This document shows positions 2,170 through 7,942 of a stretch of 13,010 nt of DNA, piece by piece. The translations under genes and the position numbers were made by a program. Below the pieces are notes generated by a model, which was given only the letters and a program-made list of their open reading frames with translations, ran no database searches and was not told where the DNA came from. This DNA is from Candidatus Hermodarchaeota archaeon (GTDB lineage: Archaea; Asgardarchaeota; Thorarchaeia; Thorarchaeales; Thorarchaeaceae), in contig JBHLLF010000064.1 of the NCBI GenBank assembly GCA_048885865.1, positions 1 to 13,010 on the forward strand, written 5' to 3'. Each line of letters opens with the position of its first letter. The stretch's first letter is position 1.

Positions 2170-2982
2170 TCATTCTTTGAATGTCATCCGCGCATTTCTT
2201 TTCGTCGCAGAGCCACCTCGCCGCCATTGTTCAAAGATTGCCATGTACATGCACTCCTGCGGACTAATCCACATATCAGAAGAGTCAAACGACTCATCGA
2301 TGAACTCGGCTGGTGCAGAACGAATCAAGGCCGCAGGTATTGATTCATCGGACTCACCCATCACTGCAGTACATGCAGAAGCAAGATTGTCTGCAATTGC
2401 TCGTCTAGTTATCCTCATTTCATTGCCAAAGAGATCAGTTCGTCCTCTGTCATCAGCCACCGGTCGAAATCCAGCCACACCAAGTGCCATCCCAATATTC
2501 CCAAGGCGGAGTGGTTGAGTCCTGCTATCAATAATCATAACTCCGATGTCTATCCCATATCGATTATGTGCTTCCCGTCTGATTCGTTCAGCGCTCCCCT
2601 TAGGGTCGGTCGGTAACAGAGATGCGTATCCGGGTGGCACATTGGACTTGTCCACCCCAGCATTGGCCATGAGTGTGTTGTTTTTGATGGTTAGAATCAC
2701 ATATGGAATCCCACCGAGAATCTCGTCCGCCTCTCTGAGCACTAGCTCTGCAACCTCAGGCAAAAGATCGTACTCATCAGCAAGCTCGATGGCTTCCTCA
2801 CTAGGGTCAACTCTAGCAAGTTTGACTACCCGTCCTTCAGCAGTTCCTAATGGAGTTTCCGCAATCCCGAGGATGTCGTGATTCTTCAACTCGAGACCCT
2901 GTGATTCTAGTGCACCAATGAGGACTTCAAGAATGTCATCATTCTCAGAGATGATACGCGTCTTAATGGGAAAGATTTGCAT
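2170..2982 (-). CDS. cofE: Coenzyme F420-0:L-glutamate ligase (CofE family)
   Basis: Motifs AEGRVV, ANAGVDKSN, LLPTDP, IIDSRTQPLRLG, GVAG, DxRGRTDLFGNEM.IT, ADNLAS and MGESDESIPAALIR. The start is moved from the ORF-track TTG at 3033 to ATG 2982 (MQIFPIKT), which has a GAGGTG Shine-Dalgarno and matches the family N-terminus. Confidence 0.9.
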   Translation of the reverse strand: MQIFPIKTRIISENDDILEVLIGALESQGLELKNHDILGIAETPLGTAEGRVVKLARVDPSEEAIELADEYDLLPEVAELVLREADEILGGIPYVILTIKNNTLMANAGVDKSNVPPGYASLLPTDPKGSAERIRREAHNRYGIDIGVMIIDSRTQPLRLGNIGMALGVAGFRPVADDRGRTDLFGNEMRITRRAIADNLASACTAVMGESDESIPAALIRSAPAEFIDESFDSSDMWISPQECMYMAIFEQWRRGGSATKRNARMTFKE

Positions 2983-3017
2983 CAGTGACACCTCTGCTCC
3001 GGCGTGGAGACACACTA

Positions 3018-3025
3018 AGATAAAA
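3018..3025 (-). promoter_or_regulatory. Possible TATA-like box (TTTTATCT, preceded by purine-rich GAGAGG) for cofE
   Basis: It lies in the 60-nt gap between the marker-14 stop and the cofE ATG, about 35 nt upstream of the start and upstream of the SD. Confidence 0.4.
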
Positions 3026-3042
3026 CCTCTCAATGAACATAA

Positions 3043-4479
3043 TTAAGCCTTGGATTTCTTCGACCGCTGAAGCTTCATCCTGGCATCCATTATGCATTTG
3101 TCACCCTTTCGACCGCCCATTGGATTGTGAATAGTACCCATAGAATTCATACACCGAGCGGCAACAGCCGCCCCCATTGCCAGACCATCCTCGACTATTA
3201 GCATTTGCCTTGATTCAGTCCATTTTCTGCCGCTGTCTGTAAGCAGTTGTGAATTAGCAATTCTAGGCTTATTTCCTGTTGTGATGGCCCTTCCTGTGAG
3301 CCCCAGAGAAGTACCCTCCAGAATTAGACCTTCTGAGAATGCTAGGTCCACCAAGCGCTGTACCACTTGAACCTGCACGCAATCTATTACGGCTAGCAAA
3401 GCATCGGTACCGAATTCTTCAGCAATGTCCTTTCCAATCATCCCCAAGTCTGAAAGGCGAGACCCATTCACTCCGGAGTCCACGCCTATCAGAGTTACCT
3501 CAGATTCAATAGCTGCTTTCACATCAACTGGAACCATCCCAAATCTAGTAGTTCCCTTTGATATCGCCTCAACTCGAATATTGGCATGAACTTCATCTAT
3601 CAAGTCATTGTCGACATCAATCCTTCGAGGCCGCGCTGAGTCGCGGACATCAAGCAGAGAGCCAGTCCGTTCCTCCACGATTCCTGTTCCTCTGACCAAC
3701 GCATCTGGTATTGCTCCAGCTAGGCCAGCAAATGATCCAATGGTCTTTGCATATGGATGTCCATCATCTGTTACTCTACCAGCAAGAGTAGTCCCGAAGT
3801 CAAGGGTCATAACGGGGTTTCTAAAGTCCACATTTGCAATCTTTGCAGCTCCTTTCAATCCAGCTGTGACGAGCTCGCCCTCCATCTCATTTGCGACTAT
3901 CTCAGCATTAGAGGGGGGAAGAGAACTGGCTACAGCACCGTCAAAGTATACCTTATGGAGCCAAGTGAAGTCTCTCAGACTTAGCGGAAGATTCTCCGGT
4001 GAAATGGAAGCAGTCATCTTTCTTGGAGCTACACCCGTAGCTAGACAGCCCTCCGCAAGCGCTTTGACGATGGCTCCGACTTCCTCCGGCTCCGCGAATC
4101 CTGCATTGACTCCTGTAGAACGAACAACAAAATGGAGGTCCTTATCGATGTCAAGTCGTGCGCGGGCGAGTGCGGTTCTAAGTATATCAGACACCATCTC
4201 AGCAACTGACTCTTTAGTCAAGTCTATGCCAGTGAGTGTGTGACCAAAGACCTCCTCGCCATTTAGTGGAGGGCGAACATCCCTGGTCATTCGAACTTCC
4301 TTTTCGATTTCGAAGATTTCAGCAGTTTCGAGATTTGTCGATACAATCACACATTTTGTGGTGGTGTTTCCAAGTTCAACTGATGCAACGGTGTAGTAAG
4401 GTCCCATTCGAAGACTAGAAGGTCCAATGCTACGCGGGCGAATCAGTTTCAATTTTCCTTCTCCTTTTCCATCATTCAT
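3043..4479 (-). CDS. Methanogenesis marker protein 14 (DUF2114 family), ASKHA-fold putative ATPase
   Basis: Recognised family signature YYTVASVELGNTTTKC...KEVRMTRDVRPP..GEEVFG, plus FVVRSTGV, ANEMEGELVTAG, DFRNP..TLDFGTTLAGR, GLAGAIPDA and C-terminal EDGLAMGAAVAARCMNSMG..NPMGG..G.KCI. Its position directly after mtrH matches the usual context. ATGA overlap with the mtrH stop. Confidence 0.88.
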   Translation of the reverse strand: MNDGKGEGKLKLIRPRSIGPSSLRMGPYYTVASVELGNTTTKCVIVSTNLETAEIFEIEKEVRMTRDVRPPLNGEEVFGHTLTGIDLTKESVAEMVSDILRTALARARLDIDKDLHFVVRSTGVNAGFAEPEEVGAIVKALAEGCLATGVAPRKMTASISPENLPLSLRDFTWLHKVYFDGAVASSLPPSNAEIVANEMEGELVTAGLKGAAKIANVDFRNPVMTLDFGTTLAGRVTDDGHPYAKTIGSFAGLAGAIPDALVRGTGIVEERTGSLLDVRDSARPRRIDVDNDLIDEVHANIRVEAISKGTTRFGMVPVDVKAAIESEVTLIGVDSGVNGSRLSDLGMIGKDIAEEFGTDALLAVIDCVQVQVVQRLVDLAFSEGLILEGTSLGLTGRAITTGNKPRIANSQLLTDSGRKWTESRQMLIVEDGLAMGAAVAARCMNSMGTIHNPMGGRKGDKCIMDARMKLQRSKKSKA

Positions 4480-5411
4480 AGAAGTTTCCTGAAGGGGTGA
4501 TTCGCTGGTGGCTCTAGACCCATTTCCATCTTTGCAGACTCGGCCGAAAAGATATCTGCCATTGCTACCGCTGGAAACACTCTATCTGCATTGCCTATAG
4601 GACCGTAAAGGAGAAAATCAGCTCCCAGTGACTGAACAACTAGATTCGAGGCAATATCACATATCTTGTACGCTTCTCGGTTCTCCTTTCTATATTGCTT
4701 TAGCCAAGTCCATGACGATGCGGCATTATGAATCCCCGAACCTGTAGGATGACCATACAGTGTTTTTGATACAAATGTGAAAGAGACCGCGGCGCCAGCT
4801 CCAGCCCCCATAGCTGTTGTAGCTGTATCAATCAAGGGTTTATTCACCCCTACATCTTCTGCGATGGACAGTAGTCCCTGCTTCAGCGACGCAGCGCCTT
4901 CGTCAAGTATAGCCCTACGACCTGCTGTCGATGAGTCTTGCGGATTGAAGGCAAGCACGATTGCACACTCATGTTGGATATCACGCAGAGCATCAATCTC
5001 TTCCATAGTCACGGATATGTTGATAGAGTTGTAGATTGCCTTGTCGATGAGTCCAATCTCCTCAGAATAACGCAATCCTTCCACGCGTACCATAGGGTCT
5101 GTAGAGTCAATGATGAATGGCGCATCCGTCAAGGCAGATACAAAATCTATGTATTTCTCCATGGCACTTGCCGACTCAGCGAATATCTGAACCATTGCAG
5201 GGTTTCCTGTCATATCAGACATCGTTTCTTGCCCGTTGATCAGATTCTCTGCTGCACTCGTATCCACTATCCCTTTGGAGGCATCTTGTACTATCTTGTG
5301 TCCTCCATAGAAGATGGTCCCGGCCAGAACTGTTGGCGTTTCTCCGGGATTGCCCCCTATCTTTACGCCACCAACGTCATAGATGTACTGTTCTTTCTGA
5401 AACACAAACAA
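4476..5411 (-). CDS. mtrH: Tetrahydromethanopterin S-methyltransferase subunit H (canonical MtrH-family pterin:corrinoid methyltransferase)
   Basis: MFVFQKEQ...GGNPGETPTVLAGTIFY.GHKIV.D..KG, PFIIDST, IYNSIN, LIDTA, G.PTGSGIHN..S.W.WL and GADFLLYGPI. TTG start with a GGAG SD, 3 nt after the mtrA stop. Confidence 0.93.
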   Translation of the reverse strand: MFVFQKEQYIYDVGGVKIGGNPGETPTVLAGTIFYGGHKIVQDASKGIVDTSAAENLINGQETMSDMTGNPAMVQIFAESASAMEKYIDFVSALTDAPFIIDSTDPMVRVEGLRYSEEIGLIDKAIYNSINISVTMEEIDALRDIQHECAIVLAFNPQDSSTAGRRAILDEGAASLKQGLLSIAEDVGVNKPLIDTATTAMGAGAGAAVSFTFVSKTLYGHPTGSGIHNAASSWTWLKQYRKENREAYKICDIASNLVVQSLGADFLLYGPIGNADRVFPAVAMADIFSAESAKMEMGLEPPANHPFRKLL

Positions 5412-5414
5412 TGT

Positions 5415-6098
5415 CTACAACTCCTTCCCAATTAGAGCCGTTCCAGACTCAGTGGAATGAACTTCAATTCCGATAGATGACGGATGAGCAGTGATTATAG
5501 CACCGGCTTCTTGAGAAGCAACCAAGAAAGAGAAAGGGTTCAGTGACACCCCATATTCTGGAAGCAGAGTAATTGAAGCCCCAATTCCAATTCTTTCTGC
5601 TGTGCTTGCAGCCCCTCTGAAATCAATAAACATGGGTTCTTCATCAAAGGACCCTGGATTCTTGGCTTGCAGCTTTGCAGCCTTTTCAGATATATCATCA
5701 GCATGAGAGTTGTTCATCATGTCCACGAATTCAATCTGTTGCCTAAATCGCTCCACGCCTTCAAGGGGCACATTCTCAATGTAGGGAATGGCTCCGGGTG
5801 CGTCCACTATCTTACGTGTATCGGCGTCAACGCCGTTTTCGTAGAGAGCCTTCATAGATGAGCCAGTCAAATGACCAGGAACCTCAGGCCCTGCAAGAAT
5901 CAAGAAACGAATGGAAGGATTGGAGATCACATTGATGATGACCCGCTCAATTCCAATATTCTCAGTCTTACATGTACCAATTATGGCAAAGTCTCCGGGA
6001 ACATGGAACTTCTTACCTAATGTACAGATTGCTACAGAGTGATCGGGGTCTCCAACCTCGAAATCTCCAGGCACATGAGGCCAATTATTCGCAGACAC
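5415..6098 (-). CDS. mtrA: MtrA-family corrinoid-binding protein, soluble (no membrane anchor), with a C-terminal extension
   Basis: WP..PGD..VGDP..SVAICTLG, G.CKTENIGIERVIINVISNP.IRFLIL.G.EV.GH.TG (cobamide His ligand at about residue 76), GAIPYIEN, ERFRQQIE.VD and PG.F.EEPM. GTG start with an AGGAGGT SD. Confidence 0.93.
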   Translation of the reverse strand: MSANNWPHVPGDFEVGDPDHSVAICTLGKKFHVPGDFAIIGTCKTENIGIERVIINVISNPSIRFLILAGPEVPGHLTGSSMKALYENGVDADTRKIVDAPGAIPYIENVPLEGVERFRQQIEFVDMMNNSHADDISEKAAKLQAKNPGSFDEEPMFIDFRGAASTAERIGIGASITLLPEYGVSLNPFSFLVASQEAGAIITAHPSSIGIEVHSTESGTALIGKEL

Positions 6099-6109
6099 GA
6101 TGAAACCTC

Positions 6110-7027
6110 CTATTCCCCCGCCTTTGGCTCGAAGAGATGTTTCGTTGTTCCAAGCACTTGGCTAGCTTCCTCAACCGCAGAAAAAATGGCGTTCTGTATT
6201 AGCGCCACAGCTGCAAATACCTCCTGAGACCTTCTCATGGAGCCATACATTATGCAATCTGTAGCGAATAGTTGGGCTGCCACTATTGAGGCTACTACTG
6301 ATGAATTGACTATATCCTCCTTATCTAGACCCTGCTCCGTGATGAACTTCCAAGCCGATGGTGCATTATGTGGTGCTAGACATGTAGGCAAACCCAGCTC
6401 AGACTTTACTGCGACATTCGTTCTCAGTTCTAATCCATATCCTGCTCCCACAGGCATCGTTCCAGGATCAATAACGAATTTCTCTATCCCCAATCCCTTC
6501 GCATCAGAAACTATTGCCTCAATTACATCCATCCGTTCCTTCAGCGAGCTGGCCTTCGGGGACCATCCTAGTACAACAGCCATACTGAGTTGACTGTCTC
6601 TCAAGAATGCACGTTCATCCTCGTCCATGGACATATTGATCGAATTGTAGATTGCTCTCCCTGTTAAGCCAGCCTCATTGCAGAAGTCGGTAGCCCGCTT
6701 CTTGGCGCTAACATTGGGGGATTCATACATGAAGGGGCCATCGAAATTCTCAGCTAGCCATGATAGATGACGCTCCATAGCAATGCCCGATCGCCCATAT
6801 ACTTCCACAATCATTGGATGACCTGTTCTCTCGGACATGCCAATCCCAGCATCAAGCCATTCCTTTGCGGTCTTCTTGTCAAAGAGACCCTCTTTTGTGC
6901 TCTCAACAATTGATTGTCCTTTAAAGAAGAGTCCCCCCACAAGGACTGTTGGATTCTCTCCTGGATAGCCTCCGATTGTTATACCACTGAAATCAAACGA
7001 CTTCTGTTCTTTCTTAAAGACAAACAT
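6110..7027 (-). CDS. mtrH: Second, divergent MtrH-family methyltransferase paralog
   Basis: MFVFKKEQ...IGGYPGENPTVLVG, GLFDK, AIYNSIN, VIDP, G.PT...PHNAPSAW and D..MYG. It is clearly homologous to the downstream MtrH but has altered motifs. A GAGGT SD overlaps the metF stop. Confidence 0.88.
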   Translation of the reverse strand: MFVFKKEQKSFDFSGITIGGYPGENPTVLVGGLFFKGQSIVESTKEGLFDKKTAKEWLDAGIGMSERTGHPMIVEVYGRSGIAMERHLSWLAENFDGPFMYESPNVSAKKRATDFCNEAGLTGRAIYNSINMSMDEDERAFLRDSQLSMAVVLGWSPKASSLKERMDVIEAIVSDAKGLGIEKFVIDPGTMPVGAGYGLELRTNVAVKSELGLPTCLAPHNAPSAWKFITEQGLDKEDIVNSSVVASIVAAQLFATDCIMYGSMRRSQEVFAAVALIQNAIFSAVEEASQVLGTTKHLFEPKAGE

Positions 7028-7039
7028 TCTTGTTCAACC

Positions 7040-7942
7040 TCAACCGGGACGCGGATAAAGCCCTGCTAACTTGACGAGTTCTGGTACGCAGGACTCCCAG
7101 CCTACAGCCATTATATGAACACCGTCCACTCCATCAATTGTTCTCAATGAATTGATAGTTTCAGCAGCAATAGACAGACCTTCTTGCTGGATTGCCTGTT
7201 CCTTTTCCTCATCATCAAGCCCCTCAGCAGCATTATCTAGGCGTTGAAGAATCGCATCAGGAATTGTGATGCCAGATACATGTTCGGTCATAAACTCGGC
7301 CATTTCTAGTCCCCGCAAAGGAACAACCCCAGCTAGAATATACGTATTCAGATCCGCAAGGGATTCCACAAATTCTGCTAGGCGAGATATGTCAAAGACA
7401 GCTTGAGTCTGAAAGAATTGGGCACCAGATTCATGCTTCAGCTTTGCTCTTTGTATCTGATGCTCAACTGGCTCGACAAAGGGATCGAACGTCGCTCCAA
7501 GAAGGAAGTCGGGCACCCCCTCAATCTCCTCATCGGAATGATCTTTGCCAGCCATCATTCGAGAGGCCAATCGAAGAGCTTGAATTGAATCAATATCTGA
7601 AACAATCTTGGCTTGTGTATCTGACCCAAAGCCCGGAAGATCACCCGTAACAAAGAGCACATTGCGAATTCCTAGAGCATAAGCGCCATAAAGATCACTC
7701 ATCAAAGCCACTCTATTACGGTCTCTCATTGCCATCTGCAGGATAGGTTCTAGTCCTGCATCAAGTGCCAACCGTGCTCCTGCAATGCTGCTCATTCTGG
7801 GGATTCTTCTTGGATTGTCAGGTATATTAACTGCATCACAGAAGTCCTTGACGACACTCGCCTTCTCAATCAACGACAGGTGGTCGGCTCCTCGAGGCGC
7901 ACCTATCTCAGCTGTTACAACAAACTCACCGCTTTGCAGCAT
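7040..7942 (-). CDS. metF: Methylenetetrahydrofolate reductase (MetF family flavoprotein, acetogen/archaeal-type); the true start may be CTG at 7966
   Basis: VTAEIGAPRG (catalytic Glu), DAVNIPDNP...MSS, EPILQM..RDRNR.AL..DL.GA.ALGIRNVL.VTGD, GA.FFQTQAVFD, ILAGVVPL and GVDGVHIMA.GW. Confidence 0.9.
   Translation of the reverse strand: MLQSGEFVVTAEIGAPRGADHLSLIEKASVVKDFCDAVNIPDNPRRIPRMSSIAGARLALDAGLEPILQMAMRDRNRVALMSDLYGAYALGIRNVLFVTGDLPGFGSDTQAKIVSDIDSIQALRLASRMMAGKDHSDEEIEGVPDFLLGATFDPFVEPVEHQIQRAKLKHESGAQFFQTQAVFDISRLAEFVESLADLNTYILAGVVPLRGLEMAEFMTEHVSGITIPDAILQRLDNAAEGLDDEEKEQAIQQEGLSIAAETINSLRTIDGVDGVHIMAVGWESCVPELVKLAGLYPRPG

Follow-up and report, generated by a model that had tools for sequence, protein, structure and literature searches.

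A predicted soluble MtrA of Thorarchaeota whose C-terminal tail resembles the N-terminal arm of MtrB and may dock MtrH

The mtrA-like gene studied here (227 aa, GTG start; positions 5415..6098 on the minus strand of the 13,010 nt stretch of Asgard archaeal DNA that was analysed, the window) encodes an MtrA that, judged from its sequence, is a soluble corrinoid carrier without a membrane anchor, and that ends in a tail resembling in its first part the MtrH-holding N-terminal arm of MtrB. The region of interest, 5415-5618 on the minus strand, corresponds to MtrA residues 161-227 and the stop codon. It appears fairly probable that the protein is a soluble MtrA with a beta tail, the MtrB-arm-like part of which tethers the corrinoid domain to a flanking MtrH dimer. 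By way of this tail, MtrA is probably held on the two MtrH proteins whose genes flank mtrA, and a docking function is assigned to the tail with moderate confidence.

Domain layout of MtrA and its gene cluster

The corrinoid-binding MtrA domain covers residues 3-164 (5607..6092, minus strand; Pfam PF04208, 199 bits, the match that together with the open reading frame and its translation identifies the gene) and aligns to the methanogen structures 8q3v_A (E 8e-61 against the window MtrA), 5laa and 5l8x. The ligand loop GHxTG corresponds to GHITG in 8q3v_A, and its histidine, H76, is the same in all of 22 homologues. The equivalog model TIGR01111 matched MtrA with 194.5 bits, below its cut-off of 249, and only model positions 8-174 of 238 were aligned. 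Because the TIGR01111 and Pfam matches stop at residue 164-166, nothing in the protein corresponds to the stalk-helix and membrane-anchor section of the model. Hydropathy analysis (Kyte-Doolittle, 19-residue maximum) gave 1.12 for the tail versus 2.29 for the anchor of a canonical MtrA from Methanobacteriaceae (locus L075), indicating that the tail has no hydrophobic segment, and strands rather than a helix were predicted. The first-pass annotation, which had described a tail without a transmembrane helix, is therefore borne out on this point. Residues 1-160 are an ordinary corrinoid domain, followed by a variable linker of about 14 residues and by a 53-residue tail of predicted beta strands, in the position where methanogen MtrA has its stalk helix and membrane anchor.

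The tail can be divided into three parts. A variable, probably flexible linker (residues 161-174; 5577..5618, minus strand) has poorly conserved alignment columns and pLDDT values below 50 at residues 162-169. It is followed by the MtrB-arm-like segment (residues 175-197; 5508..5576, minus strand) with the motif LLPEYG..L(D/N)P...LV, supported by profile alignment to MtrB and by genome and shuffle tests, and by a second half (residues 198-227; 5418..5507, minus strand) predicted as a three-stranded beta meander with the invariant residues P206, G219 and E226. An AlphaFold2 model of whole MtrA, based on a 22-sequence alignment, reproduced the corrinoid domain well, left linker residues 162-169 disordered and placed strands at residues 171-174, 176-179, 184-186, 193-195, 198-204, 207-216 and 219-226 with pLDDT values of 56-66. 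When the isolated tail was folded alone, the mean pLDDT was 47 and only the last three strands were predicted.

Sequence conservation extends to the end of the protein. More than 100 homologues, each about 228 aa long, cover the tail; in all 68 fetched Thorarchaeota loci (Thorarchaeota being the annotation of the close homologues) the match runs through residue 225-227, and P180 and E181 are invariant, as are the three second-half residues named above. Across residues 161-227, dN/dS was 0.05-0.16; in comparison with the nearest relative (locus L001) it was 0.047 in residues 175-197, the segment with the lowest dN in the tail. The tail is under purifying selection and is neither an artefact nor a decaying end.

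The gene lies in a cluster of co-directional genes, all on the minus strand. The first gene of the cluster encodes an MTHFR-family reductase (7040..7942; Pfam MTHFR, 97.5 bits; conserved synteny), followed by H2, a divergent mtrH-like paralog (6110..7027; TIGR01114, 225 bits, below cut-off), mtrA, and H1, an mtrH paralog of the canonical type (4476..5411; TIGR01114, 402 bits, above cut-off), which is matched by M. mazei MtrH (9qtp_o) at E 8e-83. Both H1 and H2 are candidate docking partners. Next come methanogenesis marker 14 (DUF2114; 3043..4479; TIGR03285, 590 bits), overlapping the end of H1 by 4 nt, a CofE-family gamma-glutamyl ligase (2170-3033; TIGR01916, above cut-off) and a LarC-family nickel-insertion protein with a Lys/Pro/Glu-rich insert of about 40 residues (623-1963). 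The order MTHFR, H2, MtrA, H1, marker 14 is kept in the 68 Thorarchaeota loci wherever the contig is long enough, and H1 is directly downstream and H2 directly upstream of mtrA wherever the contigs reach. The CofE-family and LarC-family genes come after the cluster in nearly all of these loci. Marker 14 also occurs within 5 kb of the mtr operon in loci of Methanobacteriaceae (L070-L078), in keeping with the description of marker m26 in the literature as 'tied to Mtr'.

The whole genome contains one MtrA match, which is the gene at 5415..6098, and three MtrH-family genes: H1, H2 (beside the MTHFR gene) and an unlinked third paralog (G000:C3:143056-143880, plus strand). The open frame of this third paralog reaches about 50 residues upstream of the part that aligns to MtrH N-termini. 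No match to MtrB (E<=1), MtrE or MtrG was detected in the genome, which is 87% complete, so that their absence is not proven; the 68 syntenic Thorarchaeota loci contain no match to these three subunits either.

Likeness of the tail to the MtrB arm

In the cryo-EM structure of M. mazei Mtr, the MtrH dimer is docked on a three-stranded beta-sheet of MtrB residues 1-23; this arm lies in the hydrophobic groove at the MtrH dimer interface, where small hydrophobic residues occupy a pocket, and keeps MtrH on the stalk, and its sheet is extended by strands of MtrF and MtrG (PMC12774963). MtrB residues 1-30 are disordered in the M. marburgensis structure; AlphaFold2 models from the same paper put them on the MtrH dimer and arrive at the interface seen in M. 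mazei (PMC10998594).

MtrB N-termini follow the pattern hydrophobic strand, A-P-E, four residues, L-D-P, three residues, hydrophobic strand, and the consensus of the Thorarchaeota tail is L-L-P-E-Y-G-x-x-L-D-P-x-S-S-L-V. Profile-profile alignment (hhalign) was performed with a sample of 43 MtrB sequences, 23 from the phylum of one methanogen genome and 20 from the phylum of a second centre genome. The tail matched the 23 MtrBs with a probability of 77% (P 2e-5, 23 columns), the second set of 20 sequences alone with 67% (P 5e-5), and all 43 with 87% (P 4.3e-6, 25 columns), whereas the controls gave P values of 0.12 (MtrF), 0.45 (MtrG) and 0.78 (C-terminus of canonical MtrA). The tail profile was also searched against five whole methanogen genomes in six frames; it picked out a single place in each of two, with E values of 0.012 and 0.051 per genome, and both places are the MtrB N-terminus.

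Composition-matched sequence shuffles scored with HMMER served as null models. The tail HMM scored 8-18 bits on MtrB N-termini of the PE type, and for most of these none of 1000 shuffles reached the real score. In the opposite direction, the MtrB-arm HMM gave 17-24 bits for several family members (top score 23.6; shuffle maxima up to about 10 bits), and the real score was reached by none of 500 shuffles in 15 of 22 members. The window tail is one of the more diverged copies of the family, with N for D in the L-D-P motif, and scored 6.4 bits versus 6.3 for its best shuffle; it was not singled out when MtrB-arm HMMs were run against all six-frame ORFs of its own genome (rank 82 and 233). The Pfam MtrB model (PF05440) did not detect the tail at E<=10. 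A profile search of the PDB with the tail returned MtrB (8q3v_B) at E 0.72 amid chance matches to LAMTOR5, and is taken as a lead only. MtrB N-termini of the DD type (L114-L119; I-I-D-D-D-L-V-x-D-V-N, without P-E) were not matched by the tail profile, which shows that the MtrH-docking arm differs between methanogens.

At the profile level, the resemblance between the tail and the MtrB arm is real, being both specific and reproducible. The earlier proposal of an MtrB-N-terminus-like tail stands for residues of about 173-197, which carry the arm motif over 23-26 columns (77-87% by hhalign), and is not supported for the second half (probability 0.2%). About 25 alike residues are too few to tell shared ancestry from convergence on a binding motif, and a descent of the segment from mtrB is therefore proposed only tentatively. 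An actual chimera of the mtrA and mtrB genes is conceivable; in canonical operons, mtrB is upstream of mtrA (reference operon mtrEDCBAFGH, from L075).

The second half of the tail has no detectable relative, so the whole tail is not simply MtrB. Scans of the tail against Pfam (E<=10) and NCBIfam were empty, and a search of 1.84 billion representative proteins with the tail profile recovered only this MtrA family and its fragments, with no relative of residues 198-227 outside the family. This restriction to the MtrA family marks the tail as a lineage-specific invention. Five remaining weak matches to the tail profile among the same representatives were rejected as repeat proteins or a fragment rather than relatives.

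An alternative that we regard as unlikely but worth weighing is that the tail, as a small beta domain peculiar to the lineage, serves a different purpose, for example self-association of MtrA or binding to marker 14 (possibly a corrinoid activase) or MTHFR, and that the likeness to MtrB reflects convergence or chance on a short strand-turn-strand motif. The confinement of the tail to one family, the lack of a relative for half of it, the short MtrB match that is weak in the window copy, and the fact that the named MtrB-MtrH salt bridges (see below) are not both conserved would all fit this explanation. However, of the four stalk subunits only MtrB is matched, and the match repeats with two separately fetched MtrB sets, works in both search directions at the family level and falls exactly on the MtrB residues that contact MtrH in the solved complex (PMC12774963), and mtrA is flanked by MtrH genes in the fetched loci.

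It is very improbable that the tail consists of two MtrB-like hairpins, one for each MtrH paralog. The first-pass annotation had raised this idea, taking the second half of the tail for a degenerate repeat of the first. Two MtrH paralogs do flank mtrA, and both halves of the tail are predicted to be beta-rich, each with a conserved proline after a hydrophobic strand; however, hhalign of the first against the second half gave a probability of 2% over 10 columns that were out of register. Because the second half is neither a repeat nor, at 0.2%, MtrB-like, the assignment of one hairpin to each MtrH paralog has no basis.

We give hardly any credence to the idea that the tail arose by remodelling of the stalk segment of MtrA itself. 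A short V-A-P-E strand does occur in canonical MtrA after the acidic linker, just before the stalk helix, and tblastn carried one methanogen match (L069) as far as query residue 181, but hhalign of the tail against the canonical MtrA C-terminus gave P 0.78, the TIGR01111 alignment stops at model position 174, and past P-E the residues of the tail fit the MtrB pattern and not the MtrA helix. The remotest of the explanations, a cryptic membrane anchor or peripheral membrane-binding segment, could appeal to the moderate hydrophobicity of the tail, which reaches 1.6-1.8 in two homologues, but is opposed by the maximum of 1.12 in the window copy, by the conserved prolines and charged residues and the strands predicted in place of a helix, and by the lack of membrane Mtr subunits among the matches in the 87% complete genome.

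Proposed docking of MtrA to MtrH

Tethering of the corrinoid domain to MtrH by the arm-like part of the tail is the reading that we prefer. Without a stalk, a corrinoid carrier would need something to keep it near its methyltransferases. Since the stalk and pump subunits were not found in Thorarchaeota, the arm-like segment probably works in reverse: residues 175-197 would sit in the groove of the MtrH dimer, as the MtrB arm does, and the tail would tie the corrinoid domain to a dimer of MtrH proteins from the genes on both sides of mtrA. The flexible linker, residues 161-174, could give the B12 domain the freedom to move into the active site or sites of MtrH, and the last 30 residues may, as a conjecture, complete or stabilise a small sheet. 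Binding of the tail to MtrH would involve H1, H2 or a mixed dimer as the partner.

Contacts known from the M. mazei complex can be compared with the Thorarchaeota proteins. Two MtrB-MtrH salt bridges are formed there, Arg5-Asp5 and Glu9-Arg211 (PMC12774963). MtrB Glu9, the E in A-P-E, is aligned to E181 of the tail, which is invariant; its partner Arg211 is replaced by Ser in H1 and matched in H2 by an Arg that does not vary. The Arg5-Asp5 bridge is not conserved, as the tail position is variable and position 5 is Q in H1 and K in H2. The Arg211 equivalent was considered as a marker of arm binding and was dropped, since the unlinked third MtrH paralog also has Arg at this position. A complex prediction for H1, H2 and the tail (one alignment per chain) gave a score of 0.02 and a mark of 0.32; it was run without controls and is counted neither way.

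A more specific and doubtful extension of this mechanism is that the tail docks MtrA at an H1-H2 heterodimer interface, so that one B12 domain swings between two pterin methyltransferase sites and the system, as a soluble, pump-free descendant of the Mtr head, shuttles methyl groups between a folate pool and a methanopterin pool. Both branches are represented in the genome, the methanopterin branch by Mch and Ftr and the folate branch by Fhs and FolD (G000:C5:79556-81954 and C68:3169-5651), and methyl exchange between the two pools via H2, MtrA and H1 would therefore be possible.

The attachment of MtrH to Mtr has been understood only since the M. mazei structure of 2025. If the proposed docking is correct, a soluble Asgard MtrA with the same docking motif would provide independent evolutionary support for the MtrB-MtrH interface and for the MtrB arm as an ancient MtrH-docking element, and would explain how the widespread 'MtrAH remnants' of non-methanogens act as a complex without a membrane stalk. 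MtrA and the two MtrH paralogs also make up a small, expressible three-protein system for studies of corrinoid shuttling, and may bear on folate-methanopterin methyl exchange in Asgard carbon metabolism.

Comparison with known Mtr systems

The closest counterpart of the tail is the MtrB arm, residues 1-23/30 (M. mazei 9qtp/9qtq/9qts, PMC12774963; M. marburgensis 8q3v/8q54, PMC10998594), with which it has the motif and its order in common (profile-profile P 4e-6 to 5e-5) and whose MtrH-contacting Glu9 aligns with the conserved Glu of the tail. Flexibility also appears common to both, as the arm is disordered in 8q3v without MtrH and the isolated tail is predicted at low confidence. The two differ in position, the tail being located at the C-terminus of MtrA and the arm at the N-terminus of the separate subunit MtrB, and in what follows, as MtrB continues with a cytoplasmic stalk helix and a C-terminal membrane helix whereas the tail has about 30 residues of unrelated predicted beta strands.

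Compared with methanogen MtrA (8q3v_A, 9qtq_A; soluble-domain crystals 5laa and 5l8x, PMC4915002), the corrinoid domain is about 50% identical and the His loop is kept, and both the canonical and the window genes adjoin mtrH; however, the acidic Glu/Gly linker, stalk helix and membrane anchor of the canonical protein are missing from the window MtrA. In L074 (genome G004, an uncultured archaeon), MtrA has a hydrophobic C-terminus and no Pfam MtrB match was obtained genome-wide, which may represent another reduced Mtr arrangement. For L080 (genome G002, titled Bathyarchaeia), MtrB was found in 226 of 401 sampled genomes of its phylum, and the collection may place this MAG in a methanogen-rich phylum.

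The same genes of the same lineage feature in Adam et al. 2022 (PMC9635834), where the main-text passages searched mention neither the missing anchor nor the tail, and full-text literature searches returned no description of an MtrB-like tail on MtrA. A membrane-free Asgard pairing of MtrA-like and MtrH domains also occurs in Atabeyarchaeia and Freyarchaeia as MtrA-MtrH fusions (PMC11291895). There the two domains are fused covalently, whereas in Thorarchaeota a non-covalent docking peptide and two separate MtrH paralogs are proposed to achieve the pairing.
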